This document shows, piece after piece, positions 18,402 to 42,474 of a stretch of 54,454 bases of DNA. How positions within the stretch are numbered: the stretch's first letter is position 1; the number at the start of each line of letters is the position of its first letter. This stretch comes from a virus (taxonomy: Duplodnaviria; Caudoviricetes), in the IMG/VR virus record IMGVR_UViG_3300029319_000066, positions 1-54,454 of that record; one strand, 5' to 3'. Under the pieces are notes generated by a model. It searched no databases. It saw only the letters and a list, made by a program, of their open reading frames with translations, and was not told the DNA's origin. Position numbers and translations under genes: made by a program.

Positions 18402-18434
18402 GCAATTAATTACGTAAATAGTTATGGAAATAAA

Positions 18435-20657: not shown

Positions 20658-20813
20658 TTATTGGTCCTTTCTATTTAAAATTTTATTTAAACGCTCAATT
20701 TCTCTAGTTAACTTTGCTTGTTTACGTAGAAGGCAAACTAAACGCTTTTTTGCCGTTACAAATTGGGGCTGTTTTTCAAGCCCCTTGTAATAATTTGCTG
20801 ACAAGCTAGCCAT
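20658..20813 (-). CDS. Hypothetical early protein (basic, coiled coil)
   Basis: Start MASLSANYY coupled (TAATG) to the upstream stop. Confidence 0.55.
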   Translation of the reverse strand: MASLSANYYKGLEKQPQFVTAKKRLVCLLRKQAKLTREIERLNKILNRKDQ

Positions 20814-21676
20814 TAGGCTACTTCCAAAAATCTTTGGTCGCTCATCCACTTGTTTACTTCAAGTTCACGATTAAGCATTGTCAAAGCTTTGGTCTCAGAC
20901 TGGTTAGCTGTATTTCTAAGCTCGAAGCCGTTTCTACTATCTGCGTAACTAGCGTAATTCGTAAACGCTGACATTAAAGAATATTTATTGTGGCCCCTTA
21001 CTGAAGCTTCGGACATATACAATTCATACATCTTTTTTTGCTTCTGTTCTGATGGAATAATATCCTCAAGTAATTGCTGTACTGTCTTTTCTTTAAGATC
21101 AGTTTGAGCAAATACTTTTAGTCTTTCACTCTCAGCGTAAAAATCATTCTTTGCCCTACGTAGTTCGTTTATAAAAGCTTCTAGAGAAAATCCTGAGCTA
21201 TTCTTTCTACGTATCTTAGAATACTCGCCAGAGATTTGACCGTTAGTACAGAATGTATCAATGGACCCGAAAAGCGTTGTATTAGATCCTTGTTTACCGT
21301 CTACACCGTGCAAAGCTATTATTCTTTGACGTAAGCTAGTCTTATGGCCTGAACTGGTGATAATATCTGCTTCAATACTTGGAAAGCAAACATCCATCAA
21401 AGCAAACCCACCATGACGGGCAGTTTGAAATCTGACCTCTGCGTCTGAAACATCGGCCCCGTCTAGATTCTCAGTAATTTGGCCCCAAACGCCTTCAAAG
21501 AAATCTTTATGCGGAGCGCAATTAAAGCCACTGGATACGTGGCCCATTGCTTCACCATTTAAAGGATTGATAACAAACTTATGGTCTCTCATTTTGGAAG
21601 GTTCAAACTCAGGTACAAAATTAAGTTCGTTAGGTAGTTCGATATTTCTATCTATTGCTGTAAAATCTAAAGCCAT
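20813..21676 (-). CDS. DUF932-family phage/plasmid early protein
   Basis: 287 aa; HGVDG...FCTNGQ...YSLMSAFTNYASY pattern; SD AAAGGAG. Confidence 0.7.
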   Translation of the reverse strand: MALDFTAIDRNIELPNELNFVPEFEPSKMRDHKFVINPLNGEAMGHVSSGFNCAPHKDFFEGVWGQITENLDGADVSDAEVRFQTARHGGFALMDVCFPSIEADIITSSGHKTSLRQRIIALHGVDGKQGSNTTLFGSIDTFCTNGQISGEYSKIRRKNSSGFSLEAFINELRRAKNDFYAESERLKVFAQTDLKEKTVQQLLEDIIPSEQKQKKMYELYMSEASVRGHNKYSLMSAFTNYASYADSRNGFELRNTANQSETKALTMLNRELEVNKWMSDQRFLEVA

Positions 21677-21784
21677 TTTTAGGCTCCTTTCTTTAGTTGA
21701 TTGATTAATTCGTTGGTTACGTAAACAAGCTCAGGAAATCTAACCAAAGTGATAGACTTCCATATAAGAGCAATAGCCATTTGA

Positions 21785-21985: not shown

Positions 21986-22012
21986 ATTTTGGTCCTTTCT
22001 ATTTACGTTAAC

Positions 22013-22598: not shown

Positions 22599-22631
22599 CA
22601 AATTATTAAGACAGTAAAGGACCAATTAATT

Positions 22632-23906
22632 ATGGTTATTATTTTTAACAATTTATTTTTAAAAGAAAGAAATTTTATAATGACAACATACAATAAAATA
22701 CTTGAAAGTAAGGTATGGTCTACTCCGATAGACAAGAATATTTACAAGTTATTCGACCTATGGAGAGATCACGATCAAGACGTTTACGTAACTAGGTTTG
22801 AAGTTCCTAACTTACACGACCAGTTAATGAGCTTTGACAACGGTAATCCACTAGAGTTTAACATTGGATTAATAGTTGGCTCATCAGGGTCAGGTAAATC
22901 TTCCATACTTAAACAGTTTGGTGAAGAAGAGAAACCTGTCTGGAAGGAAAACTATTCTATAGCATCCCACTTTAAAGATGAATCAGATGCAATCGACAGA
23001 CTGTCAGCTACAGGCTTGAACTCAGTACCTACGTGGGCAAAGCCTAGAGATGTCGTATCCAATGGTGAGGGCTTCAGAGCCGACTTAGCACGTAAGTTAG
23101 GTGATGGGGCTGTAGTCGATGAGTTTACGTCAGTGGTTAATAGAAACGTAGCCAAGTCATGCTCTACATCCATAGCCAAGTATATACGTAAGAATGATAT
23201 TAAGAATGTTGTACTAGCATCTTGCCATAATGACATTATCGAATGGCTTGAGCCTGATTGGGTATATAACACTGACACAAAACAACTTGTGTCTAGGAGG
23301 TCTCTTCGGCAAGGCCGTGTTCGATGGGTCAGACCCACAGTCGAGCTTTCAATTTATAGATGCTGTAGAGAAAAATGGGAGTTGTTTAAAAACCATCACT
23401 ATTTAACAGCTAAACTACCTACGGCAGTAAGATGCTTTCTTGCTAAGTGGAACGGTGAAACCGTTGGCTTTGCTAGTAGTATGGCATTGCCCGGTCGCAT
23501 ACCGCCTTTATATGAGGGCGATACAAGAATGAAATTTAGGGAGTGTAGAACTGTCTGCCTACCTGACTTTCAAGGCTTAGGCATTGGTACAAGATTATCT
23601 GATGCTGTAGCCGACATCCATATCGAACAGGGTCTTCGATATTTCTCTAAGACTAGTCACATACGTATGGGGGAGTACAGACAGAACTCACCTTTGTGGC
23701 GAAAGACAGTCACTAACCTTAAAGACCGAAGTAAATCTACCCACGGTGACGGTAAAGGTTGGCATCACTGGACCTTGGAGAAAAAGAGGATTTGCTACAG
23801 CCATGAATATATTGGCCCAGTAGTAGGACCATATAATCGCTATCGTAAATCCTATGATCCTAAATATCAAAACCTCTACAAAAGAAAGGACCAAAAGAAT
23901 GGTTAA
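22632..23906 (+). CDS. ABC-type ATPase fused to a GNAT acetyltransferase domain (COG2401-like)
   Basis: Walker A GSSGSGKS, signature VSNGEGFRADLAR, Walker B VVDEF, H-loop ASCH; acetyl-CoA motif RTVCLPDFQGLGIG; alternative start 22680. Confidence 0.85.
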   Translation: MVIIFNNLFLKERNFIMTTYNKILESKVWSTPIDKNIYKLFDLWRDHDQDVYVTRFEVPNLHDQLMSFDNGNPLEFNIGLIVGSSGSGKSSILKQFGEEEKPVWKENYSIASHFKDESDAIDRLSATGLNSVPTWAKPRDVVSNGEGFRADLARKLGDGAVVDEFTSVVNRNVAKSCSTSIAKYIRKNDIKNVVLASCHNDIIEWLEPDWVYNTDTKQLVSRRSLRQGRVRWVRPTVELSIYRCCREKWELFKNHHYLTAKLPTAVRCFLAKWNGETVGFASSMALPGRIPPLYEGDTRMKFRECRTVCLPDFQGLGIGTRLSDAVADIHIEQGLRYFSKTSHIRMGEYRQNSPLWRKTVTNLKDRSKSTHGDGKGWHHWTLEKKRICYSHEYIGPVVGPYNRYRKSYDPKYQNLYKRKDQKNG

Positions 23907-24298: not shown

Positions 24299-24482
24299 AG
24301 GTACAATAGGAGATTTAAAAACTGTACCAACGCACTACAAGATTACTCTTACTAACATAGATGAGGAGCAAGTAGATAAGATAGCTAGATTTATAAATGA
24401 TCTTAATATGAAAGAGTTAAGTAATCAAAAGAAACAAGCGTTTTATCAGCGATTTCGTACAAAGGCAAAAGATGATGCCTAA
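24237..24482 (+). CDS. Hypothetical protein upstream of integrase
   Basis: 81 aa; SD AAAGGA. Confidence 0.6.
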   Translation: MIQSRTTIDQYGPRLPEGQTEGTIGDLKTVPTHYKITLTNIDEEQVDKIARFINDLNMKELSNQKKQAFYQRFRTKAKDDA

Positions 24483-25602
24483 AGCTCCCTACGTAAGACC
24501 TCGTATGAGGGGCAGTGTAAGGGTCTATGACATTAGACCTACCACTGAAGTAAAGAGGGCATTCCCTGAGCTAGAGAGAGAGACTTACACATCTAGTTCA
24601 GAAGCCAATGCCAGAGGTTATGAGATCAAACGTAAGTTTGAACTTTGGAAGTGCGGTAATCACGAAGATGTTTACGTAGATGATCGATCAGTTGAAGCAC
24701 TGATTAATGATTACAAGAAATCTATGTCCTACGTAAACATTAAGAAGGAGACTACTAGACGTTCTTACAGTGATCACATAAGGCACGTACTTCCTGTTTA
24801 CATAACTAACACACCGTTTTGCAAAATGAATGTGTCAAACGTAGACTACAACTATGCTCAATCTCTTTGGTTACACATAGAAGATTCGGTCTCAACACAT
24901 AAAGCTAACCATACTTTTCGAGTACTAAAGCTAGTCTGGAATGAGGGTCTTCGCTCAGGGAAAGTAAAATTTAATCCTTTCTCTTTGGTCAAGATGCCAA
25001 AGCTACCAGATAGACAAGTTTTGTGGGAGATAGATCAACTCAAGGGTATGATTAAGTATTGCGATGATGAGGGTTATCCTTCGATGGGTACGATGCTTAC
25101 AATGTGCTATGAGTTCTGCCAACGGCCTGTAGATGTACGGACTATGAAGTGGTCCAACATAGACGGTGTTACTGGCGTAAGTAACTTCATACAGCAAAAG
25201 ACGGGTAAACATATGTCTATCAAGGTAACTAATGCAGTACAGAAGCGTATGTCTCTACATAAGAAGCGTAACATAGATGACTATATCTTTGCTTATGAAA
25301 ATACGGGCAAACCCTATACGCAAGACAGATGCAACAAGTTGTTTCGCAAGCTCGCGGATGGGTATGGACTGCCAAAAGTTCCTCTCCACGGTCAGCGTAA
25401 CCGAGATGGTAGCCAAAAGTATTCTTCTATATGGATGGCTGATCTACGTAGGACAGGAGCAACTCATGCCTCGCGCTCAGGTTGTACTGACAGGGAGTTA
25501 ATGGCTCTTACAGGGCATAAAAACCCCAATATGTTAGTTGTTTACGCAGTTGCTGGTGAGATCGAATCTACCAACGCAAACATGAAAAGAGGTTTGCTTT
25601 GA
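24472..25602 (+). CDS. int: Tyrosine integrase/recombinase
   Basis: CQRPVD (R1), QQKTG (K), DLRRT, LTGH and catalytic Y in VVYA; adjacent tRNA-derived attP. Confidence 0.9.
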   Translation: MMPKAPYVRPRMRGSVRVYDIRPTTEVKRAFPELERETYTSSSEANARGYEIKRKFELWKCGNHEDVYVDDRSVEALINDYKKSMSYVNIKKETTRRSYSDHIRHVLPVYITNTPFCKMNVSNVDYNYAQSLWLHIEDSVSTHKANHTFRVLKLVWNEGLRSGKVKFNPFSLVKMPKLPDRQVLWEIDQLKGMIKYCDDEGYPSMGTMLTMCYEFCQRPVDVRTMKWSNIDGVTGVSNFIQQKTGKHMSIKVTNAVQKRMSLHKKRNIDDYIFAYENTGKPYTQDRCNKLFRKLADGYGLPKVPLHGQRNRDGSQKYSSIWMADLRRTGATHASRSGCTDRELMALTGHKNPNMLVVYAVAGEIESTNANMKRGLL

Positions 25603-25681: not shown

Positions 25682-25773
25682 TAAGTTATTGATTTTAAAG
25701 AGTTTGGCTCCGGCGGTAGGGATCGAACCTACGACCAATTGATTAGTCTGACTCTTTTAAAATCAATGACTTA
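25682..25773. promoter_or_regulatory. Two inverted IHF-consensus boxes flanking the attP core
   Basis: AATCAATAACTTA (minus, 25682-25694) and AATCAATGACTTA (plus, 25761-25773) match WATCAANNNNTTR. Confidence 0.7.
25705..25745 (-). other. attP core: 3' half of a tRNA (probably tRNA-Asn GTT)
   Basis: Minus strand TAATCAATTGGTCGTAGGTTCGATCCCTACCGCCGGAGCCA: T-arm GTAGG-TTCGATC-CCTAC, acceptor 3' strand and CCA; no 5' half present. Confidence 0.85.
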
Positions 25774-25907: not shown

Positions 25908-26672
25908 ATGACCTATTTAGAACAACTAGAAATTGTAGAAGCAATACCTATTAAAGAGGGAGACACTATAGTTATTCAGTGTCCTTTCTGTGGTGGACTA
26001 AAGAAATTGGCTGTTTCTAAACTGGATGGTCAACTAAAATGGTATTGTTATAGAGCTTCCTGTAATGCCAAAGGTATCTACTCAGGTAAACGTAACTTAA
26101 AAGCTGTTAAGAATTATCTCGCGGATACAGTTCAAAAGAAAACTAGAGATCCAAAGCCAATTCCTGAGATAACTACTTCCGTAGATAACCACCAAGAAGC
26201 ATTAGACTATCTTGTTAACGTAAATAGTTTAGAAGCATATGAGAAGGGGTACATCAAAGTAAGATATGCTCCAAGTGAAGACAGGGTACTTTTCTACGCA
26301 GATAATGGTGCTGTTGGACGATCACTTAAATCATACGGACCCAAGTGGATTACTTACGGTACTATTGATACAGGAGTTCAAATAGGTAAAGGGGAGACTT
26401 GTGTATATGTTGAGGATATACCATCTGCTTGTAGTGTCAGTCGATTAAATAATTACGTAGGTGTTGCCTTGCTTGGTACGAATATTACACAAAAGATACA
26501 TAAAGCTACTAAAGTTTATAAAATGAGAATTTTATGTCTTGACAAGGATGCAAGTACTAAAGCAATAAACCAATTAAGAAATGTTGATAGATCAATTAAG
26601 CTTAGACTTTTAGCTAAGGACTTAAAAGAGCTATCTAAGGACCAATTAATAAAGGTATTGAATGTTTACTAA
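25908..26672 (+). CDS. DNA primase (zinc ribbon + TOPRIM)
   Basis: CPFC...CYRASC zinc finger; TOPRIM motifs VEDIPSA, ALLGT and CLDKDA. Confidence 0.85.
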   Translation: MTYLEQLEIVEAIPIKEGDTIVIQCPFCGGLKKLAVSKLDGQLKWYCYRASCNAKGIYSGKRNLKAVKNYLADTVQKKTRDPKPIPEITTSVDNHQEALDYLVNVNSLEAYEKGYIKVRYAPSEDRVLFYADNGAVGRSLKSYGPKWITYGTIDTGVQIGKGETCVYVEDIPSACSVSRLNNYVGVALLGTNITQKIHKATKVYKMRILCLDKDASTKAINQLRNVDRSIKLRLLAKDLKELSKDQLIKVLNVY

Positions 26673-27233: not shown

Positions 27234-28448
27234 ATGGACCAATCATTGTTGAAGAGTTGTCTTCGTAACTCTTTTTATAAAGAGAATAAGGCAAAATTAA
27301 GAAAATCACTATTTGAAGATAGTAGAAAAGAAGTGTTTGAAACTATTGTTTCGATGCACGAAAAATTTGAAAAAGATATTACTCCATTAGAATTGTTTGC
27401 TTATTGGAAGGCAAAAAATCCTACATCTACTGGATCTTGGTCTGTAGAAATACAGGATGTAATGAACTCAGTCGCTGAGTCTGAGGATATTGATGATGCT
27501 GTAGCTGAAGAAGTTATAGAAAATCTTTGGAGACAACATATTGGGTTAGATATTGCTAACCTTGGCATAAAAATGTCTGAGGGCGATACCTCAGCAATGG
27601 ATACACTCAATAATTTACTTACTCGCGTATCTAATGGCTATTTACCAGACGATTTTGGTGAACCAGTAACTGACGATATTTACGAACTGTTAGCTACTGT
27701 ATCAAATGATAACAGATTTAAGTTTAACTTGGATACGTTATCAAAGGAAGTGTACGGCATTGGTAGAGGTGAGTTTGGAGTTATAGCCGCTTATAGTAAC
27801 GTAGGTAAAACGGCCTTTGCTATAAGTCTTTGTGCTGGTCCATCAGGATTTTGCCAACAAGGTGCTAAAGTTTGTTACATAGCTAATGAAGAAATAGGTA
27901 AAAGAACAAAGCTTCGCGCAATACAAGCTCATACTGGTATGACAGTAGAGGAGATCGAATTTGATCCTCAGAGTGCTTCCGCAAGATACTTAGGTATTAA
28001 AGACCGATTAATATTTGTCGATGCTCAAGGTTGGGATATCCAAACTTTAGAAGCTTACTTAGATAAACAACAGCCAGATTTAGTTATTGTTGATATGGCT
28101 GATAAAGTTGCTCTCGTAGATAAATTCAATTCAGGCCATGAGCGTTTACGTGAATTGTACTATCGACTGAGAGAAGCGGCTAAGAAGTTTAATTGTGCAA
28201 TCTTAGGTCTTTCGCAAGCAAGTGCAGAAGCTGAGGGTAAGACCAGAATTACAATGTCAATGATGGAAGGGTCGAAGCTAGGTAAAGCGGCTGAGAGTGA
28301 TATTATGTTGGGCATTGGTCGTATGAATGACGCTGAGATGCCTGACGATCCTACTCGTTGGATAACCGTAATGAAGAATAAGATCTCAGGATGGCACGGT
28401 ACTATTATTTGTTCACTTAATCAAAAGACCTCAAGGTACGAGGTTTAA
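27234..28448 (+). CDS. DnaB-like (SF4) replicative helicase
   Basis: Walker A AYSNVGKT, ANEE, Walker B VIVDMAD, LSQAS and KNKISG motifs. Confidence 0.9.
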   Translation: MDQSLLKSCLRNSFYKENKAKLRKSLFEDSRKEVFETIVSMHEKFEKDITPLELFAYWKAKNPTSTGSWSVEIQDVMNSVAESEDIDDAVAEEVIENLWRQHIGLDIANLGIKMSEGDTSAMDTLNNLLTRVSNGYLPDDFGEPVTDDIYELLATVSNDNRFKFNLDTLSKEVYGIGRGEFGVIAAYSNVGKTAFAISLCAGPSGFCQQGAKVCYIANEEIGKRTKLRAIQAHTGMTVEEIEFDPQSASARYLGIKDRLIFVDAQGWDIQTLEAYLDKQQPDLVIVDMADKVALVDKFNSGHERLRELYYRLREAAKKFNCAILGLSQASAEAEGKTRITMSMMEGSKLGKAAESDIMLGIGRMNDAEMPDDPTRWITVMKNKISGWHGTIICSLNQKTSRYEV

Positions 28449-33216: not shown

Positions 33217-33705
33217 ATGATTACCAAAGAAGATATTGATGCGGTGGCATCTTTAGCAGAGCCATTAAATCAAGTTGGTTTACATGATATGGAGCCAGAT
33301 TGGTTAGATCACATAGATAAAAGCTCTCCTCTTCAGATGGTAACTCAATTTGCTAAAGCTATGGGTCAACCTATAAATCAAAGATGGTTGGGCAGTTTTA
33401 AACTAGAAGAATTACGTTTTAATTTTATAAGAGAAGAATTTGAAGAATTTGAGGAAGAATGTTTGAAAGGTGATGCACCTGAAAACGCCCTCAAAGAATT
33501 AGCTGACATTGCCTACGTAGTTTATGGCTATGCAGCTACTTATGGTTGGGATTTGGACGAAGCCGTGCGTAGGGTTCACAAATCAAACATGAGCAAACTA
33601 GGCATTGACGGTAAGCCTATCAAAGACCCTAACGGTAAAGTTTTAAAGGGTCCAAACTATAAAAAACCAACATTACAGGACTTAGTGGAGACCAAAAATG
33701 AATAA
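33217..33705 (+). CDS. MazG-like / PRA-PH nucleotide pyrophosphohydrolase
   Basis: EEFEE...KELADIAYVVYG...VHKSNMSK...GKVLKGPNY. Confidence 0.85.
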   Translation: MITKEDIDAVASLAEPLNQVGLHDMEPDWLDHIDKSSPLQMVTQFAKAMGQPINQRWLGSFKLEELRFNFIREEFEEFEEECLKGDAPENALKELADIAYVVYGYAATYGWDLDEAVRRVHKSNMSKLGIDGKPIKDPNGKVLKGPNYKKPTLQDLVETKNE

Positions 33706-35641
33706 AAATTTACTTCCAACAGACTATCAAACTTTTATCGCAACTAGCCGTTATGCTCGTTGGCTACCTGAAGAAAAACGTAGAGAAACTTGGACTGAAA
33801 CCGTAGATAGATACATAGATAATGTAGTTAGACCTAGAATTAAGTCAAATGATCCTATTACGCTAGAGTTGATTGAAGAAATTACGGAAGCAATACTTAA
33901 TTTAAGTGTTATGCCAAGTATGAGATCATTAATGACCGCAGGACCAGCGGCTGATCGTGATAATACTTGTATGTATAATTGTAGTTATTTGGCTGTAGAT
34001 GATCCAAAGTCTTTTGATGAAGCTATGTTTATTCTTTTATGTGGTACAGGCGTTGGTTTTAGTGTTGAAAGAAAATTTATTGATAATCTGCCCGAAGTAC
34101 CAAAGCTATTTGATAGTGATACTATCGTGGTTGTTAAAGACTCTAAAGAAGGTTGGGCTAAAGCTTTTAGACAAATCCTAGCATTATTATGGGCGGGAGA
34201 AATACCTAAATGGAATGTTGATAAAGTAAGACCCGCAGGATCTAGATTAAAGACTTTTGGGGGTAGGGCATCTGGACCTGCTCCTTTAGTCGATTTATTT
34301 AATTTTTCCGTTAAAACATTTAAAGAAGCACAAGGACGTAAACTGTCTACGTTAGAATGCCATGATCTTATGTGCAAAGTTGGCGAAATAGTAGTTGTAG
34401 GTGGTGTACGCCGATCTGCTATGATTTCTTTAAGTAATCTACAAGACGATAGAATGCGTTATGCTAAGTCTGGTGAGTGGTGGGATGATGAAGCCGCTGG
34501 AATAAAAAGATATGGCTACAGACGATTAGCAAATAACTCAGTTGCGTATACAGAAAAGCCTGACTCTATGTCTTTTATGCGTGAGTGGATGTCTTTAATT
34601 GAAAGTAATTCTGGTGAGCGAGGTATTTTCAACAGAGAAGCTTGTAAAAAACAAGTTGCAAAAAATGATAGAAGAGATCCAGAGTATGATTTTGGAACTA
34701 ATCCTTGTTCTGAAATAATTCTTAGAAGTATGCAATTTTGTAATTTAACCGAAGTAGTGGTTAGAGCTACAGATACTGTAGAAACATTAAAAAGAAAGGT
34801 TGAATTAGCTACTATCTTAGGAACAATTCAATCTACGTATACAAAATTTCCGTATTTACGCAAAAATTGGCACAAAAATACAGAAGAAGAAAGGCTTCTT
34901 GGTGTTAGTCTTACAGGGATAATGGATAATCCTTTATTGACACATAAAAATGAAGGATTAGCAAACACTTTAGAGCATTTAAAAGAAGAAGCTGTACAAA
35001 CAAATATATTGTGGGCGCAAAAGCTAGGTGTTCCTTACAGTGCTGCTATTACTTGTGTTAAACCATCTGGAACAGTTTCTCAATTAGTCGATAGTTCTAG
35101 TGGTATTCACGCAAGGCATTCACCTTATTATATTCGTACTGTTCGAGGAGATAACAAAGATCCACTTACACAATTTTTAATTGATCAAGGTGTTCCGTCA
35201 GAGCCAGATAATCAAAAGCCAAAGGAAACAACAGTTTTTAGCTTTCCAACAATGTCTCCTGTAGGTGCAATTTGTACTAAAGATTTAACTGCAATCGATC
35301 AACTTAATATGTGGCTTATGTATCAAAGACATTGGTGCGAACACAAACCTTCTGTGACTATTAACGTAAAGAAAGATGAATGGTTTGAGGTAGGTGCATT
35401 TGTTTATGCTCATTTTGATGAAATGTCTGGCGTATCTTTTTTACCATTTAATGAACACATTTATCCTCAAGCTCCCTATCAAGAATGTGATGAAGAAGAA
35501 TATAAAAAGGTATTATCATCTATGCCAAAAAACATAGATTGGACTAAATTATCTACCTACGAGACTGAAGATACTACCTCTGGATCACAGACAATGGCTT
35601 GCGTAGGTAATACCTGTGAAATAGTCGATATTGCTTCTTAA
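33698..35641 (+). CDS. nrdJ: Class II (adenosylcobalamin-dependent) ribonucleotide reductase
   Basis: RRETW, PSMR, YNCS, GGVRRSA, GTNPCSEI and TCVKPSGTVS motifs; C-terminal C-x4-C; no beta-subunit gene present. Confidence 0.92.
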   Translation: MNKNLLPTDYQTFIATSRYARWLPEEKRRETWTETVDRYIDNVVRPRIKSNDPITLELIEEITEAILNLSVMPSMRSLMTAGPAADRDNTCMYNCSYLAVDDPKSFDEAMFILLCGTGVGFSVERKFIDNLPEVPKLFDSDTIVVVKDSKEGWAKAFRQILALLWAGEIPKWNVDKVRPAGSRLKTFGGRASGPAPLVDLFNFSVKTFKEAQGRKLSTLECHDLMCKVGEIVVVGGVRRSAMISLSNLQDDRMRYAKSGEWWDDEAAGIKRYGYRRLANNSVAYTEKPDSMSFMREWMSLIESNSGERGIFNREACKKQVAKNDRRDPEYDFGTNPCSEIILRSMQFCNLTEVVVRATDTVETLKRKVELATILGTIQSTYTKFPYLRKNWHKNTEEERLLGVSLTGIMDNPLLTHKNEGLANTLEHLKEEAVQTNILWAQKLGVPYSAAITCVKPSGTVSQLVDSSSGIHARHSPYYIRTVRGDNKDPLTQFLIDQGVPSEPDNQKPKETTVFSFPTMSPVGAICTKDLTAIDQLNMWLMYQRHWCEHKPSVTINVKKDEWFEVGAFVYAHFDEMSGVSFLPFNEHIYPQAPYQECDEEEYKKVLSSMPKNIDWTKLSTYETEDTTSGSQTMACVGNTCEIVDIAS

Positions 35642-35658
35642 ATAATTGAATTTTATAT

Positions 35659-35691
35659 AAAAAAAGCCTAGAGATCACTTGACCTTTAGGC
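35659..35691 (-). terminator. Terminator of the late (minus-strand) arm
   Basis: GCCTAAAGGTC-AAGT-GATCTCTAGGC followed by T7 on the minus strand. Confidence 0.7.
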
Positions 35692-35708
35692 ACAAAATGT
35701 AGTAGAGT
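35679..35708 (+). promoter_or_regulatory. Putative promoter of the small RNA
   Basis: TTGACC-18 bp-TAGAGT with no ORF downstream. Confidence 0.5.
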
Positions 35709-35713
35709 TACCG

Positions 35714-35792
35714 AAGAATTAGGTTGATTGGTCCACCTAATTCGTTGGTGGAGAGACCCTCGCTTTTATACCTTTAAGTGGGGGTTTCTTTT
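35714..35792 (+). ncRNA. Putative trans-acting small RNA (seed hairpin + terminator)
   Basis: Perfect 9-bp stem GAATTAGGT/ACCTAATTC with loop TGATTGGTCC, then a terminator hairpin; loop is complementary to early-gene start regions. Confidence 0.55.
35753..35792 (+). terminator. Intrinsic terminator of the plus-strand arm / sRNA
   Basis: GAGACCCTCGCTT...AAGTGGGGGTTTC then TTTT; G-U pairs valid only on the plus strand. Confidence 0.75.
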
Positions 35793-38700
35793 ATTGTAAA
35801 TTCAACTGTCTCATTTGTTCATCTACGGTAACAGTCGGGCTTGGTTCTGCTATAAATCCTTCACTGAATGCAGAAGAACTTGAGAGAGGGGCTACTGAGC
35901 CAGCATCTATAATAGCTTGTCCTGTTTTCTTGGCTGTACCTACGGTAACATCCTTAGCAACCTTTTTAGCTATTTGTCCTTTACTAAGACCTTTAAATTG
36001 AGATCCATAATTAATAAGAAATTCCTTGACGCTTTCTATAGCTCCCTTACGTATCTGTGGATTTTTATTAAGAGTAGCTAATAAAGTTCTTGGCTGAAGC
36101 ATTAGTACTCTAAGAGCTTCTGATTTTTTGGCGGTAGGTAATCCATCAACTAACTTTTTAAAAGCGGCGGAACCAATAGCTGCTGCTTGTAATTGTGATC
36201 CTTCTCCAACACCAAATTGTGCGCCGAAGTTAGCACCAAATATTCTAGCTGCGTTGGTAACTAAATCACCTTGACCTGTAACAGCGTTTGATATCTGTTT
36301 GTCGTTCATAGTACTTTTTTGAACACGTAATCCTTCGGAAATTACTGCGCCAAGTGCTTGTGTCTCTTCACTTGAAATTACACCTTGCTCTTGCATAATA
36401 TCTAAAATGCTTTTGTCTCCCTTACGCCCACTAAGAGGTCTTGTTAATTCATTTGTTAACGTAAAGAAGTCAGGATCATCGCCAACTTTTGCAGACTCAA
36501 ATAATTTGTCTATCGTAGCCATTCGTAGGTCGGCTAGAGCATTTGCATCTCCTAATGCTTCTGAAGCAAGCTTTGTGTAATCATCTACAGGATTTTTACC
36601 AGTAAGTACCTTACCAATTTCTTTTGGTAATTGTCCTGAAGTAGCAATTTCATTAAATTGATCGAATATTTTATCGGCTGTTCTTTGTGCATCTAAAAGA
36701 CCTACTAATTCAGCCCTAAAATTTGGGAATGCTTTTAGTACTTCTGCATTCTCAGTAGCAGACATAAATTGTTCTAACTTTTGTGGGTCAATCGTACCAT
36801 CAGTACCCCTTAATTTAGTAACTGATCCTCGTAGGAAATCTTCTTGGGCTTTTGTCATAGTTGGCCCAAGGTCTTGACGTATACCCTCATCACGAATTGC
36901 TACAGAAGTAGTTTCTCCACCTTCATTTAATGTAAAATCATCTGTAACCTCAGATTCTGGTGCATCTGGTCTTGGTCTGTTAGCTCCGTAGATAGTATAC
37001 TCTGGAACAGGGTCGGTAGGATCTAATAAAGTATCATCTCCAATACCTGTTACTTTAATTTCTGGAATAATATCGTCATCTGTTGGCATTATTTTTGATG
37101 GATCAACTTTTGTAGGATCATCTACATTATCTGCTTGCGTAGATGGTACTCTTGCACCGTCATCTGCTAAAGTTCTTGCATCAAGTTCTGCCTTTGCAGT
37201 GGCATTTTTTAAATCATCTAAATTTTTTATTTCTTGTAAAGTTTCACCTGCTTGGTCTGCAAATTCTGCACCTTCTCGCATTTCTGCCATATTTAATGCT
37301 CTAGATGTTTCAGAACCAGCCATTGCTTTATCTAAAGTTTCTTCTGCACGTATAGTGGTTCCACCAGTTTCACCTTTAGCAAGAACATCTTGATTGAAGT
37401 AACGGGTAAATCTAGCATTTAACTCTGCACTAAATCTACGAGCAGCTTTTATGTCCATACCACCCATATTATCGGGTATAGTATTTAACTCATCGATTGT
37501 AGCATTAGCTAATTCATCAAAAATACCTGCCTTAAAGTAATCTGGACTAGCACCTGAGCCTAAAGTTCTAGACTCTGCTAACATACGGGATCTAAATTTA
37601 CGTATTTCATCTACGCTAATAGTTTGATTAGGATCACGGGCTTTTGCGTAAATGTTTCTTATAACAGCATCTAATTGACCACCGCCTGCTAAAGTTTCGC
37701 CTTCTAATATTCTACTATTTATTAAGCTATCTATTTTAGACGCAAGTTGATCACCTTGGACTGTAAGTGAAGGATCAATCCTACTCCATAAATATGTTTC
37801 CATATTTCGGATATTGTTTTTAGCTTCAAACAAAGTCTGTTGAGCTATTTCTGAAGCCTTCATTGGACTTACATCTGGACCAAGTTCATTCACTCTAGCC
37901 GTTGCTTGGGCCTGTGCAGAATTAATACGTGTATCTAATAAATTCTGAAAATATCTTGCTCTTAAAGTATTAGCTGCGGAAGTATTACCTGCTCTGGCTA
38001 AATTCTCAGAAGCATTTAGTATTTGATTAAGAGCAATATTAAGTTCTTTTCCTACATCTCCACGAAAATCTGCGTAAGCAGAAGTCATTTCATTTTGAAT
38101 ACCCATAAGAACTGGATTTTCTGTAAGATTGCCAGAAGGTAAATTAATACCTAATTCAGCCATTTGCCCATCTGTAGCATTTAAAGCATTTTCTAAATCG
38201 CTAATAATCCTTTCAGCTTTGTGAGCATCAGCTTCTTCTATTAGTCGAGTATAAAGAGCATCATCACCAGCTTCCTGTGCAACTTTAGCCCTGTCTAACA
38301 GTAAATCTCTTTGGGTTTTAGCTGCTATAAGAATATCATTCACAGCCCCCTTTTGAGCCGCTTGTTTACTTATTGCCGACATAGCTGTTTCTAGTGATTT
38401 ACTTAATGCACTACTTACGCCAGTAGCTGTATCTCCAGCTTTAGATTTTGCAGATACTGTACCACCACCAAGAATAGAACCAACAAACTCTGCACCCATC
38501 ATGGCCCAAGGATTATCGCCTAAGCCAATTGTTTCTATAAAACCAACTGCGCCAGCAGCTGTACCAGTAGCGGCTGTTTCTATCTTTTTAAATTTACTAG
38601 GATCTTTAGCAACTTCCTTAATAAGAGGATTGCTTAATCCAATTCCCATTTTAGCAGATTTTAATAAAGCATAACCCGGTATAGCATTTTCTGTTAGTAC

Positions 38701-39333
38701 TCTGGCAATACTAAAATATGGTTTAAATTCATCTGGAATATTTTCTCTATCTAGATAAAGTTTTTCTCCTTCGTCAACAACACCTGTTTTTTCTGCAATA
38801 AGATTTGCTTTTTCTTTAAGATATTGACTACCCAATACTGGCTTAGGACTTGAAGCTATAAAATCTTTTGGATCAGTGCTTACATCACCGCCAAGTTTGT
38901 TAATACCATAACGTACTCCACCTTCTATTCCTTGTGATGCCATATTCACTAAGTCAACAGGCAATCCAAGAAGGTTCATACCAGCACTACCAATGCCTTT
39001 TGTAATTGCATCACCAGTACTATCTACGTTGGTATCTACGACTTGGCCTGATGTAATAAAATCTAACAAGGCAGTAGGACTAGTACCTTTTTGTATTTCT
39101 GGTGCTAGGTCAAAAGGTTGACCATCCATTTTCCAATTAGTACCGCCTTGTTGAACAATATCATTAAGAATGTTCTGGTCGGATTCACCAGAGCTTCTAC
39201 GTTGTTTAATATTTTGTAGGTCCAACTCCCCAGAGGTTTGTTGTTCCTCAAACGGGTCTACTACTTCTGCATCTTGCTCAAGGTCTAGACGATCTTGTTC
39301 ATCTTCAGCAAATGGATCTACAATATCAGTCAT
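35791..39333 (-). CDS. Large internal virion (ejection) protein
   Basis: 1180 aa, helical, acidic DPF N-terminus; last gene of the structural arm. Confidence 0.65.
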   Translation of the reverse strand: MTDIVDPFAEDEQDRLDLEQDAEVVDPFEEQQTSGELDLQNIKQRRSSGESDQNILNDIVQQGGTNWKMDGQPFDLAPEIQKGTSPTALLDFITSGQVVDTNVDSTGDAITKGIGSAGMNLLGLPVDLVNMASQGIEGGVRYGINKLGGDVSTDPKDFIASSPKPVLGSQYLKEKANLIAEKTGVVDEGEKLYLDRENIPDEFKPYFSIARVLTENAIPGYALLKSAKMGIGLSNPLIKEVAKDPSKFKKIETAATGTAAGAVGFIETIGLGDNPWAMMGAEFVGSILGGGTVSAKSKAGDTATGVSSALSKSLETAMSAISKQAAQKGAVNDILIAAKTQRDLLLDRAKVAQEAGDDALYTRLIEEADAHKAERIISDLENALNATDGQMAELGINLPSGNLTENPVLMGIQNEMTSAYADFRGDVGKELNIALNQILNASENLARAGNTSAANTLRARYFQNLLDTRINSAQAQATARVNELGPDVSPMKASEIAQQTLFEAKNNIRNMETYLWSRIDPSLTVQGDQLASKIDSLINSRILEGETLAGGGQLDAVIRNIYAKARDPNQTISVDEIRKFRSRMLAESRTLGSGASPDYFKAGIFDELANATIDELNTIPDNMGGMDIKAARRFSAELNARFTRYFNQDVLAKGETGGTTIRAEETLDKAMAGSETSRALNMAEMREGAEFADQAGETLQEIKNLDDLKNATAKAELDARTLADDGARVPSTQADNVDDPTKVDPSKIMPTDDDIIPEIKVTGIGDDTLLDPTDPVPEYTIYGANRPRPDAPESEVTDDFTLNEGGETTSVAIRDEGIRQDLGPTMTKAQEDFLRGSVTKLRGTDGTIDPQKLEQFMSATENAEVLKAFPNFRAELVGLLDAQRTADKIFDQFNEIATSGQLPKEIGKVLTGKNPVDDYTKLASEALGDANALADLRMATIDKLFESAKVGDDPDFFTLTNELTRPLSGRKGDKSILDIMQEQGVISSEETQALGAVISEGLRVQKSTMNDKQISNAVTGQGDLVTNAARIFGANFGAQFGVGEGSQLQAAAIGSAAFKKLVDGLPTAKKSEALRVLMLQPRTLLATLNKNPQIRKGAIESVKEFLINYGSQFKGLSKGQIAKKVAKDVTVGTAKKTGQAIIDAGSVAPLSSSSAFSEGFIAEPSPTVTVDEQMRQLNLQ

Positions 39334-41936
39334 TAATTTTGCCCACTGTATTTATTATTGTAAAATTCAGTTAATTCAGCGTCAGTTTTACCTTGGTTAG
39401 CTGGTATTGCTTTAGCTGCTTGTATAAATTCTTGAAGAGTAGGTACGTTAGTATTTTGAGTATTATTATTTGGTTTAAATATACTTCCTGTAACTTGATC
39501 CGATTTTGCACCTTCGTCAAAGCTTTGTAATACAGCTTTGTAAATGTTAGAAAGTGGTCGTAAAGCATTTAGTGCTACGTTAGCCTTACTTTGGGCTGTT
39601 GTATTTACACTACGGTCTTTTGCCGTTGCTTCCTGATTTATTATAGCTTGATCAACAAGGTTTTTGATGTCTTCTAAATTTCTACGGGCCTCTGGTTTAC
39701 TTCCAAAAAATCTGCCAGTTTCTGGAATAAGTGCGCCAATCTGAGCTTTTAGTGCTACGCTATCTCTAAGACCCGGAAAAGCTGTTACTATTTGTAAGGT
39801 AGTAACTGTTTTAAGAGCATTTAAACTACTTCTTGCCTCTGCACTGTCTTTCATTGCAGTGCCACCAAAAACACCAGTAACTGTATTTAATACTTTACCA
39901 GCCCAACCTTCAGGACCAAACGCTGCTGAAATATCTTTTAAGTCATTAATGTCGCCTTCAAAACCAATATTTCTTAACGCTTGTATTGCTTGGTCTTGTG
40001 CGGATTGTATAGATTGAGATTCTTCTTCAGTAAGTGTTTCATTTACTATTCTTTGAGAAGCATCAGCATCACTTTCTTGATTGCCAATATTTATTGGAGT
40101 GCCTGAAGCTATATCAACAATCATTGGTCTTCCAAAACCATCAGATGTTATTTTTCTAACACCATTTTTAATTTCTGCTGCTGTCTTTCTGTCTACGTTA
40201 AGATCAGCCATAATCTGGGCAATGTCATCCAACTTGATTGGACTCCAACCTTCTTGCTCCAACTGGGCTTGTTGATCGGCACTTAATACCCGTATTTCTT
40301 GCCCATCTTTATAATATGTACGGGCTGTATATTTTTCTGTAGGTGCTGGCTTTATAGCAGAAAATCCATCTGCAATAGCTACATCCATTTGATCTTGTGA
40401 AAATACTTCTATTTCACGACCATCTTCTGCATATAAAGTTCGTTTAGCAAATTTTTCTGTAGTAGCTGGTTTAATAGCAGACCAACCGTCTTGCTTGTAC
40501 TGGTCTAATTCTTCAATTGAGAATACTTTTACTTCTGCACCGTCTTTATACAGTATTCTGCTATCAAACTTGTCTGTCGGAGCAGCTTTTATAGCAGAAA
40601 ATCCATTAGCTATAGCTGTATCCATTTCTGCTTGAGAAGTAACAACTTGTTGTGCGCCATCTTTGTAAAGAGTTCTTTGAACAAATGGCGTTACCTTAGC
40701 TGGCTTAACTGGAGACCAACCGTCTGATACCAACAGAAATTCTTCATCCTCAGAGAATACCTGTATTTCTGCACCGTCTTTGTACAATGTTCTTTGAACA
40801 TATTCTTTAGTTGGAGCAGCTTTTATAGCGGAAAAACCATTAGCAATGGCTGTATCCATTTCTTCTTGGGTAGTTACGACTTGCTCTGCACCGTCTTTGT
40901 ACAATGTTCTTTGAACAAACGGCACTACCTTAGCTGGTTTTTCTTCACTCCAACCGTCTGCTTTATAAGTAGATAAATCATTTTCGCTAAAGACTTTGAC
41001 TTCTGCACCATCTTTGTAGAGTGTTCTTTCTTTAAAGTCTTTTTCTACAGCTGGTTCTATTGCAGACCAACCAATATTAGTTGCGTCATCTAATTCTTTT
41101 TGAGAAAATACTTCTAGTTTTTGTCCATCTTTATATAATGTTCTTTGTTTAAATGGCTCTGTTTCCTTGGGCTTAACTTCGCTCCAACCTTCGGATTTGT
41201 ATTGTGTTAAATCAGCATTACTGTAGACCTGAACACTAGCACCGTCTTTATAAAGAGTTCTTGTTTTAAAATCTGTATCACCTGCGCCTTTAATTAAAGA
41301 AAATCCTTGTGATATATAATTATTTTCTTCAGCTTGAGTACGGGCAGTAACTTCACTACCATCGGCCTTATATAACTTTGTAGGATTATATTTATCAGGA
41401 TCAGTAAGCGAAGCCTTTCTTCTTATAAGTAAAGCCTTTCTTTCTGCGGTTATATTGGGATTACTTAATTCAAAATTTACTTCATCAAGTGCCATAGAAA
41501 GAGGATCTTTTTGTGATTTACCAAATAAAATTTCACCCATTTGTTGATCAGTACTACCGGGTGTGTACGTAGATGTAGCATCCATTATAGTATTTAAATC
41601 ATTGTATCCTGTAATACCGCCATCAACGATAACACTAAGCACTTTTTGTTTATTTGCTTCAGTTTTATCTATTCCTTTAGTGGTAAGATAAAGATTAGCT
41701 AATCTGTCCTGTTTTTTCTGTTTTTTATCTTCAGCATCTTGCTTTGATTTTATAGCTCTTGCATTGGCCCTTGCTTCTCGTCTTTTTTCAATTTCTTCTT
41801 GTCGTTTAAATTCATCAGCTTTCTTTATTCCGTAAGTAAGCTCATCAAAAAAACCCGCAAGCGGATCTACTTTTTTTCTATAAGCACCAGCGTCTAGATT
41901 AGCTCGTACTCTGTCAGCCTCACTACGAAAGCTCAT
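39333..41936 (-). CDS. Internal virion protein with ten 39-40-aa tandem repeats
   Basis: Probable start MSFRSEAD (41936); repeat RTLYKDGxxxxVxSxxExxxxxxxG[WF]SxxKP. Confidence 0.7.
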   Translation of the reverse strand: MSFRSEADRVRANLDAGAYRKKVDPLAGFFDELTYGIKKADEFKRQEEIEKRREARANARAIKSKQDAEDKKQKKQDRLANLYLTTKGIDKTEANKQKVLSVIVDGGITGYNDLNTIMDATSTYTPGSTDQQMGEILFGKSQKDPLSMALDEVNFELSNPNITAERKALLIRRKASLTDPDKYNPTKLYKADGSEVTARTQAEENNYISQGFSLIKGAGDTDFKTRTLYKDGASVQVYSNADLTQYKSEGWSEVKPKETEPFKQRTLYKDGQKLEVFSQKELDDATNIGWSAIEPAVEKDFKERTLYKDGAEVKVFSENDLSTYKADGWSEEKPAKVVPFVQRTLYKDGAEQVVTTQEEMDTAIANGFSAIKAAPTKEYVQRTLYKDGAEIQVFSEDEEFLLVSDGWSPVKPAKVTPFVQRTLYKDGAQQVVTSQAEMDTAIANGFSAIKAAPTDKFDSRILYKDGAEVKVFSIEELDQYKQDGWSAIKPATTEKFAKRTLYAEDGREIEVFSQDQMDVAIADGFSAIKPAPTEKYTARTYYKDGQEIRVLSADQQAQLEQEGWSPIKLDDIAQIMADLNVDRKTAAEIKNGVRKITSDGFGRPMIVDIASGTPINIGNQESDADASQRIVNETLTEEESQSIQSAQDQAIQALRNIGFEGDINDLKDISAAFGPEGWAGKVLNTVTGVFGGTAMKDSAEARSSLNALKTVTTLQIVTAFPGLRDSVALKAQIGALIPETGRFFGSKPEARRNLEDIKNLVDQAIINQEATAKDRSVNTTAQSKANVALNALRPLSNIYKAVLQSFDEGAKSDQVTGSIFKPNNNTQNTNVPTLQEFIQAAKAIPANQGKTDAELTEFYNNKYSGQN
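40233..41387 (-). repeat. Intragenic tandem repeat, ~10 x 117 bp
   Basis: Visible in both protein and DNA; units 4 and 6 are nearly identical. Confidence 0.9.
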
Positions 41937-42474
41937 TTTCAAGCTCCTCTTCTTCTGTATTTCCAAGCATTGCGGATTGTTCTTCTTCAGAAGCTACTCC
42001 ACCATCTTCTGGCATAGCCATCAGACCGCCTACAGGGGCTTCTGAGGGGGCTTCTTTCATTTGCATAGGCTCTACCTCATCTTCTTGCTCTACGATGCCC
42101 AGAGAAGCTTTTAAGAGGGTAGGGGTAATAACTACTCTATCTTTATCCTCTATTCCCATCTCATACTTAATGCCTACGTCTTTAGCTATTATCTCAATGT
42201 AACGGGCAAGAGGGCCAGCTATTAGAATTGCTAGGTCTATGCCTACCTTTCCTTTACTAATGGCTTGCATAAGTATTGTAGAAACTACGGTAGTAATGTG
42301 AGCATCGATGCCTAGCATTGCGAACACTAGTTCTTTTTGTTCTGGCTCATCAATTTTGTCTATTAAGTAAGAAACAGCTTCATCGTAATCGACTATATCA
42401 GGTGGCCTATGCCAAGCGTAGTTACGAGTATCTGAAGTGTAATTGCTACCTGGAATTGGAGTACTAAGTCTCAT
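41923..42474 (-). CDS. Conserved virion-module protein
   Basis: 183 aa; PIPG...YAWHRPP N-terminus; acidic C-terminus. Confidence 0.65.
   Translation of the reverse strand: MRLSTPIPGSNYTSDTRNYAWHRPPDIVDYDEAVSYLIDKIDEPEQKELVFAMLGIDAHITTVVSTILMQAISKGKVGIDLAILIAGPLARYIEIIAKDVGIKYEMGIEDKDRVVITPTLLKASLGIVEQEDEVEPMQMKEAPSEAPVGGLMAMPEDGGVASEEEQSAMLGNTEEEELENELS

Follow-up and report, generated by a model that had tools for sequence, protein, structure and literature searches.

A conserved small-RNA gene at a convergent gene junction that probably switches off early genes of an HMO-2011-type phage

The c4 RNA of the temperate phages P1 and P7, for which Rfam includes a model, lies within the transcript that it controls and is cut out of it. 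The CI RNA of the satellite phage P4, an immunity factor, acts by premature transcription termination and is likewise processed from the transcript that it controls, and GcvB of enterobacteria directs a G/U-rich seed against C/A-rich sites of many mRNAs. Here we describe a putative regulatory RNA in IMGVR_UViG_3300029319_000066, a virus record that is complete, spans 54,454 bp and has direct terminal repeats (called the window below, meaning this whole stretch of DNA). The element is a conserved small-RNA gene, situated where two gene blocks converge, that probably switches the phage's own early genes off.

Exposed sequences of c4, probably loops, pair around the ribosome-binding site (RBS) and block translation, and sequence differences set its specificity, according to the excerpts of PMC12197685 drawn on here. 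GcvB pairs immediately upstream of the Shine–Dalgarno (SD) sequence of yifK, where ACA motifs enhance translation (excerpts of PMC3879156). The window phage is, judged by nrdJ similarity, an HMO-2011-type podophage, and phages of this type are a dominant and broadly distributed marine viral group (excerpts of PMC9038755). The excerpts of the latter paper, which describes the phages CRP-738 and CRP-235, make no mention of repressors, promoters, intergenic elements or attP. Literature searches found nothing joining HMO-2011 with a small RNA, and nothing pertinent for roseophage with sRNA.

A first-pass annotation, made from the letters of the window, had proposed a small RNA that pairs with the starts of early genes. 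Relatives bear out a conserved plus-strand RNA gene whose loop complement is enriched at starts; the proposal had missed a second seed and the DUF932 gene that we now predict as a target. We consider it likely that the element is a trans-acting translational repressor RNA of early genes. As judged by genome comparison, its promoter boxes, structure and seeds are conserved, complementary sites are enriched and strand-biased, and changes in seeds are matched by changes in targets.

Anatomy of the putative RNA gene

The element occupies a 149-nucleotide (nt) gap, 35642–35790, which is the meeting point of converging nrdJ (plus strand) and a gene for a structural protein of 1180 amino acids (aa; minus strand). 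The gap and its borders hold the following features.

35679..35684, plus strand: –35 box TTGACC, conserved in relatives
35703..35708, plus strand: –10 box TAGAGT, after an 18-nt spacer
35715..35795, plus strand: predicted small RNA of about 80 nt, its 5′ end placed from the –10 box and its 3′ end from the U tail
35716..35743, plus strand: hairpin 1, a perfect 9-bp stem in which GAATTAGGT (35716–35724) pairs with ACCTAATTC (35735–35743)
35725–35734, plus strand: loop of the 9-bp stem (seed 1), UGAUUGGUCC / TGATTGGTCC
35738..35749, plus strand: seed 2, UAAUUCGUUGGU, formed by the 3′ part of the hairpin-1 stem and a single-stranded linker
35751..35795, plus strand: intrinsic terminator, a long G-U-rich stem followed by the U tail UUUCUUUUAUU
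35659..35691, minus strand: intrinsic terminator of the structural (late) block, a hairpin at 35691–35666 followed by seven U at 35665–35659
33698..35641, plus strand: nrdJ, left neighbour of the gap
35791..39333, minus strand: the 1180-aa structural gene, right neighbour of the gap

The promoter-like site, the 9-bp hairpin, its loop and the plus-strand terminator all lie where the first-pass annotation had placed them, and its view that the element contains no open reading frame (ORF) holds for ORFs of at least 30 aa within 35694–35790; a 39-aa ORF at 35574..35693 on the minus strand merely overlaps the end of nrdJ. Judged by sequence alone, the locus is a transcription unit of its own, with promoter boxes and an intrinsic terminator that both read on the plus strand, a mark of the class of trans-encoded base-pairing small RNAs. 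The plus strand of 35700–35800 folds at –40 kcal/mol (z = –5.04), and none of 200 shuffled sequences folds as well. In addition to the loop, a second conserved unpaired stretch, (U)UUCGUUGGU(UG), covers part of the 3′ arm of the stem and extends into the linker; by prediction, the linker of seed 2 is largely unpaired. ARAGORN finds no transfer RNA (tRNA) or transfer-messenger RNA in the window, where no Rfam family reaches its gathering score either. At a relaxed threshold, Rfam matches within 35600–35850 stay at chance level, the best being to an unrelated model with an E value of 0.095.

The two converging blocks do not share a terminator; each has its own, and the two cross, an arrangement retained in all homologues. 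The –35 box of the small-RNA promoter lies inside the loop of the opposing minus-strand terminator, whose A-run and hairpin are retained in all aligned homologues. Because the terminators cross (35659–35795), the 3′ ends of the nrdJ and late transcripts should overlap by about 130 nt, and because the minus-strand terminator lies beyond the RNA gene, late transcripts are predicted to contain the entire small RNA in antisense. The plus-strand terminator would serve the small RNA and the nrdJ transcript alike, and nrdJ transcripts would, reading from the terminator positions, continue through hairpin 1 to 35795. A simple terminator scan missed this plus-strand terminator because its loop exceeds the length that the scan permits.

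Conservation in relatives

To find homologues we used a covariance model, R1, built on 13 sequences, which scores 67.1 bits in the window and 58–97 bits in relatives (the uncultured ones are G001, G002, G004, G006, G007, G012 and G013). The element directly follows nrdJ in 6 of the best 80 nrdJ loci in IMG/VR, at 72–77% protein identity, as well as in the window, and R1 matches 22 of 99 further loci among the matches listed by pattern scans. Pattern scans and R1 together yield at least 22 matches, 20 of them distinct, in uncultured relatives and the roseophage CRP-738. A loose pattern scan of viral contigs (at least 117 matches) returned mostly chance matches; R1 separated true from false.

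Two cultured phages carry the element. In the Roseobacter phage CRP-738 it lies at 12722–12801, between the reductase gene gp19 and gp20, and scores 90 bits. CRP-235 holds a distant form (R1 20.9 bits, E value 0.004) with the layout of the window: an A-run, a hairpin with TTGACC, 18 nt, TATAAT, a short hairpin with the loop UUUGGUCA, a linker and a terminator. The gaps that hold these RNA genes (L211 12668–12796 in CRP-738 and L246 14169–14293 in CRP-235) bear no annotation in the records. The convergent gap of HMO-2011 itself contains no convincing homologue (R1 13.9 bits, E value 0.14), R1 finds no match above 9.6 bits in the 50 kb of CRP-2, and in the 5.5-kb nrdJ locus of CRP-603 it reaches at most 9.4 bits; a simple pattern matched three places in the 50 kb of CRP-603. 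Among 185,579 bacterial and archaeal species genomes, one exact pattern had no match and a second had four, about the chance number, each lacking terminator or promoter context. These exact patterns therefore reveal no prophage or host copy in the species genomes, a scan that is blind to diverged copies.

The promoter boxes are retained where their surroundings are not. All 18 distinct upstream regions contain a –35 box, TTGAC(C/G) and once TTGATC, at 17–19 nt from a –10-like hexamer, and positions T36 to C40 of the –35 region are invariant in alignment A1. The –10-like hexamers of relatives match at 4–6 of 6 positions (TAAAAT, TATACT, TATAAG, TATAAT, TAAATT and others), and the spacers have diverged beyond recognition among the 18 regions while the boxes have been kept.

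The structure covaries. Standard pairs make up 96.1% of cells across the 20 distinct sequences, and both partners have changed in 8 of 20 pairs, including 6 of the 9 in hairpin 1. The alignment has a covariation score of 0.428, compared with 0.268 ± 0.016 in shuffled alignments (0 of 500 reach it) and at most 0.162 for slid partners. This alignment was fitted to R1, which favours the structure; an independent RNAalifold prediction on a MAFFT alignment returned the same two helices with five compensated pairs. Furthermore, 91.4% of hairpin-1 cells pair on the plus strand versus 70.7% on the minus strand, G-U pairs making up 36 of 174 cells, and for the terminator helix the values are 100% and 77.3%, with G-U pairs in 48 of 211 cells. 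That the helices hold better on the plus strand, by way of G-U pairs, favours a plus-strand RNA over a DNA site or a minus-strand RNA. Beside the covarying stems, the loop core AUUGGUC is nearly invariant across homologues, and GTTGGT of seed 2 (GUUGGU in the RNA) is invariant in alignments A1 and A2. A conserved single-stranded seed next to covarying helices is a further mark of the small-RNA class.

Loop complements at translation starts

The window contains 15 copies of GGACCAA, the core of the loop complement, where 4.16 ± 1.88 are expected, and none of 100 shuffles reaches 15. GGACCAA falls in 4 of 67 windows at translation starts (start windows) by our own gene calls, compared with 0.29 expected (P = 2e-4). 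The enrichment at start codons that the first-pass annotation had suggested therefore holds in the window, as it does in relatives and in annotated CRP-738. The sites at starts are as follows.

20660..20667, minus strand: GGACCAAU at the SD and spacer of an 83-aa gene (ATG 20657)
21989..21995, minus strand: GGACCAA at the SD and spacer of the 66-aa first leftward gene (ATG 21985)
22619..22626, plus strand: GGACCAAU at the SD and spacer of the 424-aa ABC-like/GNAT gene (ATG 22632)
23888..23894, plus strand: GGACCAA at the SD and spacer of a 67-aa gene (ATG 23899)
27235..27245, plus strand: UGGACCAAUCA / TGGACCAATCA, an 11-nt loop complement across the start codon of a DnaB-like helicase gene

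At four of these sites (22619, 23888, and 20661 and 21989 on the minus strand) AAAGGACCAA is followed by 3–6 nt and then ATG. Every copy that had been noted from the letters alone is real, including the one at 27236 and the further copies at 26639, 31319 and 52880 (minus strand). The helicase site is conserved in G004, G002 and CRP-738.

The same motif stands out in relatives. (G)ACCAA(U) is among the most start-enriched words, beyond SD and ATG words, in three genomes; G001 has GACCAA in 6 of 74 start windows (0.89 expected), and G004 has GACCAAT in 6 of 58 (0.32 expected, P 1e-6). The loop complement is not start-enriched in G002, where the contig end cuts the early region. When start windows holding 6-mer complements are counted along each RNA, the counts peak at the loop and the linker.

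The start of CRP-738 gp65 (L212, record 53664, minus strand) reads ATGGATTGGTCC, which is the loop motif in the sense of the small RNA and not its complement. Three copies of GACCAACC, at 40480, 40714 and 41065 on the plus strand, lie about 230–350 nt apart in similar contexts within an 877-aa gene on the minus strand (39333..41966); they resemble a repeated module of a structural gene read antisense, with no link to the small RNA.

The DUF932 leader as predicted main target

The longest perfect complement to the RNA in the window, outside the RNA locus, belongs to the second seed. It is the 12-nt ACCAACGAATTA at 21717–21706 (minus strand), 29 nt before the ATG of a DUF932-family gene, and the next longest is the 11-nt loop complement at the helicase ATG. 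The gene and its site are these.

20813..21676, minus strand: DUF932-family early gene of 287 aa, the predicted main target (Pfam DUF932 at 23.5 bits, cut-off 23)
21695..21717, minus strand: best predicted target site, ACCAACGAAUUA (21717–21706) followed by AUCAAUCAACU (21705–21695), in the DUF932 5′ untranslated region (UTR)

The site lies 18–41 nt upstream of the ATG (21676). After the 12-mer, AUCAAUCAACU can pair with GGUUGAUUGGU, and the two parts together would give a 23-bp duplex in which the small RNA is bulged. When the cost of opening the RNA is included, the cofold gain for this leader is –10.8 kcal/mol in the window, the strongest of 66 start windows and stronger than any of 400 random windows (minimum –7.1). 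The leader of the orthologue also ranks first in G001 (–17.0) and second in G004 (–16.6). In CRP-738, the DUF932 orthologue gp63, which lies outside the energy ranking, has a 9-nt loop complement that ends 2 nt before its ATG. Duplex energies computed with the full-length RNA were discarded, as they gave long unrealistic duplexes for every gene. With the energy restricted to the loop seed, 4 of the window's 66 start windows pair more stably than the first percentile of random windows, compared with 0.66 expected.

Relatives place their longest complements in similar positions. In G004 it is the 13-nt CAACCAACGAACA, 29 nt before the DUF932 orthologue; in G002 the same 13 nt lie 9 nt before a small ORF. 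G001 has the 11-nt loop complement and two CCAACCAAC before its DUF932 orthologue, and G013 has the 12-nt TCAACCAACTAG, 10 nt before a 117-aa ORF. The DUF932 orthologues share 58–59% identity with the window protein in G001 and G004 and 73% in CRP-738, and CRP-235 gp59 scores 87.9 bits as DUF932. The window protein matches TIGR03299 weakly and has no relative among solved structures by sequence.

Matching seed and target variants

Seeds differ between lineages, and each of four variants is accompanied by a matching target. These are natural sequences rather than mutants, and they provide a third mark of the small-RNA class.

Window: seed UAAUUCGUUGGU, target ACCAACGAAUUA
G004 and G002: seed UGUUCGUUGGUUG, target CAACCAACGAACA
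G013: seed CUAGUUGGUUGA, target UCAACCAACUAG
CRP-235: linker CUUUCAAGUUUAGUGAG and loop UUUGGUCA, targets ACUAAACUU or UAAACUUGAAA, plus UGACCAAAUG

CRP-235 is the strongest case, as its linker CUUUCAAGUUUAGUGAG is wholly different from the window type. The leaders of gp59 and its neighbour gp58 hold ACUAAACUU and UAAACUUGAAA, which are two of the three sites of at least 9 nt in that genome. In both leaders the linker site is followed by an SD with UGACCAAAUG, the complement of CRP-235's own loop UUUGGUCA, so that both differences from the window type in the loop flanks are mirrored in the targets.

Enrichment and orientation across genomes

In nine genomes, complementary sites of at least 8 nt in start windows number 45/252, compared with 8.8 expected, and same-sense sites number 4/252. 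The complementary counts per genome are 5, 10, 6, 6, 7, 2, 8, 1 and 0. Base composition does not account for this excess: in four genomes the real seeds have a match in 25 start windows and mononucleotide-shuffled seeds in 3.80 ± 2.16, and none of 2,000 shuffles attains the real total (per genome, 12, 1, 9 and 2 of 2,000 shuffles reach the observed count).

Similar results were obtained for the two isolates with the gene annotation of their authors. In CRP-738 (65 coding sequences), 3 of 6 loop sites of at least 9 nt fall in start windows compared with 0.17 expected (P 4e-4), at the helicase gene gp10, the DUF932 gene gp63 and gp59. Of its linker sites, 2 of 4 do so compared with 0.11 expected (P 0.0045), at gp61 and the primase gene gp08, and all five genes are early or replication genes. 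CRP-235 has three linker sites that reach 9 nt or more, two of them in start windows (P 0.0026). Relatives in which the RNA gene was not found serve as negative controls. None of 62 annotated CRP-2 starts has GACCAA, ACCAAT or AACCAAC, and with our own start calls the same three words occur in 0/58 and 0/63 starts, so that neither CRP-2 nor CRP-603 has such a start window; the two phages are close kin, so these controls count as about one lineage. The check suggested in the first-pass annotation, whether loop and early-gene motifs vary together, has a positive outcome, in that variants match across lineages and the motif is missing at the starts of these two phages. An excess over chance of start-site complements at unlinked genes, with these negative controls, is also characteristic of the small-RNA class.

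These tests bear on two other explanations. One is that a protein binds the motifs, be it a translational regulator that acts on RNA or a repressor that acts on DNA, with one copy inverted and the complementarity a by-product. The early region is indeed rich in TTACGTAA, which resembles a protein site, and phage translational repressors that bind start regions exist, such as T4 RegA. DNA sites would, however, be indifferent to gene orientation, yet 45 sites are in the pairing orientation and 4 in the opposite one; an RNA-binding protein would have to read the copy next to nrdJ on the minus strand, whereas structure is kept on the plus strand only; and the linker swap of CRP-235, matched by its targets, is explained more simply by direct pairing. 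We regard a protein-site origin of the motifs as extremely improbable.

Alternatively, the small RNA might be real and have main partners other than early mRNAs, namely host mRNAs or the antisense late transcripts (affecting 3′ ends, stability or titration), with the leaders serving translation. The minus-strand terminator lies upstream of the RNA promoter in every homologue, so late transcripts must hold a full antisense copy, and C/A-rich sequence upstream of the SD is a known translation enhancer (excerpts of PMC3879156). Yet seeds of the same composition, when shuffled, match 3.8 start windows versus the 25 observed, seed and target changes match in four lineages including the wholly different CRP-235 linker, and relatives without the RNA lack the motif at starts. 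The antisense overlap, for its part, is compatible with early-gene targeting. Partners of this other kind as the main ones therefore seem to us rather improbable.

Proposed mechanism

We propose that a sigma-70-type promoter drives an RNA of about 80 nt, which would end at the intrinsic terminator held in common with nrdJ. Processing of the RNA from the nrdJ 3′ UTR is also possible, since nrdJ read-through carries the same sequence. The RNA would present two G/U-rich seeds, the loop (G)AUUGGUC(C) and the stretch (U)UUCGUUGGU(UG), which would pair with C/A-rich early-mRNA sequences in or just upstream of the SD and start codon. Besides the DUF932 gene as first target, the RNA would act on small early ORFs and on the ABC-like/GNAT gene, and possibly on the helicase gene. 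Such pairing would block ribosomes and lower translation, perhaps with subsequent decay of the mRNA. Since late transcripts would traverse the entire RNA gene in antisense, heavy late transcription would probably counteract the RNA. The U tail of the terminator is compatible with Hfq dependence. Transcription itself, repression rather than activation as the sign of the effect, its timing and any need for Hfq are inferred.

Several observations weigh against early-gene repression by this RNA. The promoter match in the window is weak, at 9 of 12 positions, and the six promoter-like sites of the region are not unusual in themselves (4.3 ± 2.2 in shuffles). With the energy restricted to the linker seed, 0 of 66 start windows fall below the random first percentile; the A/U-rich 12-nt DUF932 duplex reaches –14.3 kcal/mol against a random first percentile of –16.0; and the overall cofold distributions of start and random windows do not separate in the window or G002 (Mann–Whitney p = 0.52). 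The helicase, a target in the first-pass annotation, does have its 11-nt complement at the ATG, and this site doubles as conserved coding sequence for Met-Asp-Gln-Ser (MDQS) in relatives and is absent in CRP-235. Only 0 of 8 sites in G006, 1 of 8 in G012 and 2 of 10 in G007 are in start windows, among contigs that do not all extend to the early region. Our gene caller rewards GGA upstream of starts and could therefore favour GGACCAA sites, a bias from which the annotated isolates CRP-738 and CRP-235 are free. The genomes are related and sites partly inherited, so that the counts are not independent, and G002 and CRP-738 have the same seed. Finally, C/A-rich leaders could serve translation alone.

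Marine metatranscriptome contigs (three runs of one study, compared with 33500–38000) cover parts of 36302–37803 only, and the RNA gene lies outside this cover, which is uninformative either way. A 45-nt metatranscriptome piece at 35318–35362 derives from a relative.

As a separate observation, four contigs of run X1 and one of X2 match the 1180-aa structural gene with no mismatch, and a second X2 contig has one mismatch. Because the contigs match this gene at 0–1 mismatches, the window virus or a near-identical one appears to be present in an RNA library, where DNA carry-over is possible.

The weaker of these results would suit a locus with no separate RNA regulator, consisting of crossed terminators and a stabilizing 3′ UTR hairpin for nrdJ and the structural block, and with complementarity due to chance or composition. 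Convergent gene blocks require terminators, the promoter match in the window is modest, metatranscriptome contigs give no transcript cover at the RNA gene, and the energy tests on the window alone are mixed. Left unexplained by this account are the nearly invariant unpaired sequences beside covarying stems, the two promoter boxes that every one of the 18 distinct upstream regions keeps at a fixed distance, the strand-specific start-site excess (45 versus 4) and the matched seed and target variants. We judge it very unlikely, and retain a repressor RNA acting on early genes as the likely function.

Integrase, repressor and immunity

The window encodes a tyrosine integrase (24472..25602), which is found in all nine RNA-bearing genomes that cover that region, at 55–75% identity and at 31% in CRP-235. 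No Pfam helix-turn-helix domain was detected at E values up to 1 among 10 small early ORFs scanned, or at E values up to 0.001 among 10 early proteins scanned. The RNA could in principle take the place of a CI-like repressor, as the immunity determinant of the integrase-bearing HMO-2011-type lineage and the main or only silencer of early lytic genes in the lysogen. If so, the seed and target variants (window, G004, G013 and CRP-235 types) would define immunity groups, like c4 in P1 and P7, and antisense late transcripts would lock in the lytic decision by removing the RNA. We hold this to be unlikely, a minority reading, because CRP-2 and CRP-603 have an integrase and lack both the small RNA and the motif, and because an over-represented palindrome suggests a protein site.

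Specifically, TTTACGTAA, with at most one mismatch, has 76 copies in the window versus 22.7 ± 5.9 expected. The early and replication region (18.4–32.6 kb) contains about 60% of them; exact copies are found at 18410 (minus), 21717 (minus), 22107 (plus)/22108 (minus), 22783 (plus) and 48254 (minus). Its core TTACGTAA is a palindrome, and one copy, TTGTTTACGTAA, directly adjoins the predicted RNA target site in the DUF932 leader. TTTACGTAA may be a protein operator or a promoter element, and the over-represented palindrome TTACGTAA hints at a protein regulator.

Between the integrase gene and the primase gene (25908..26672), 25711–25745 resembles, in minus-strand sense, the 3′ part of a tRNA. 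G001, G002 and G004 have kept this fragment, which comprises a variable loop, T arm and acceptor strand; ARAGORN detects no complete tRNA there. The fragment is likely a candidate attP core that matches a host tRNA gene.

Comparison with known systems

For the HMO-2011-type group this would be the first proposal of a regulatory RNA. The element comes with predicted early targets and natural compensatory variants, and it offers a concrete hypothesis for early-gene control in integrase-bearing phages with no recognizable repressor among the early proteins scanned. Because CRP-738 and CRP-235, which carry it, are cultured phage–host pairs, the hypothesis can be tested directly.

Like c4, as described in the excerpts cited above, the RNA is phage-encoded and is predicted to pair around the RBS through exposed sequences, with two complementary stretches here too. 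There is no relation in sequence or structure, no Rfam family reaching threshold at this locus. Unlike c4, the RNA is separated from its predicted targets by about 14 kb, is predicted to have a promoter of its own, and has several predicted target genes. c4 is an immunity repressor of the ant operon, its target being the antirepressor of the lytic switch; for the DUF932 protein, the main predicted target here, a comparable part in immunity would be speculative.

With the P4 CI RNA it has in common that a small phage RNA would hold early functions down by pairing with early transcripts. The sites here are instead at translation starts, and the Rfam search gave no homology.

The mode of pairing is close to that of GcvB, in that a G/U-rich single-stranded seed faces C/A-rich elements at or just upstream of the SD. 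GcvB is a host RNA for amino-acid transport genes, whereas this is a phage RNA that appears to be aimed at the phage's own early genes, and a hairpin loop would provide it with a further seed; there is no homology or Rfam match between the two. In comparison with these systems, the element is best described as a novel family within an established type of regulator.

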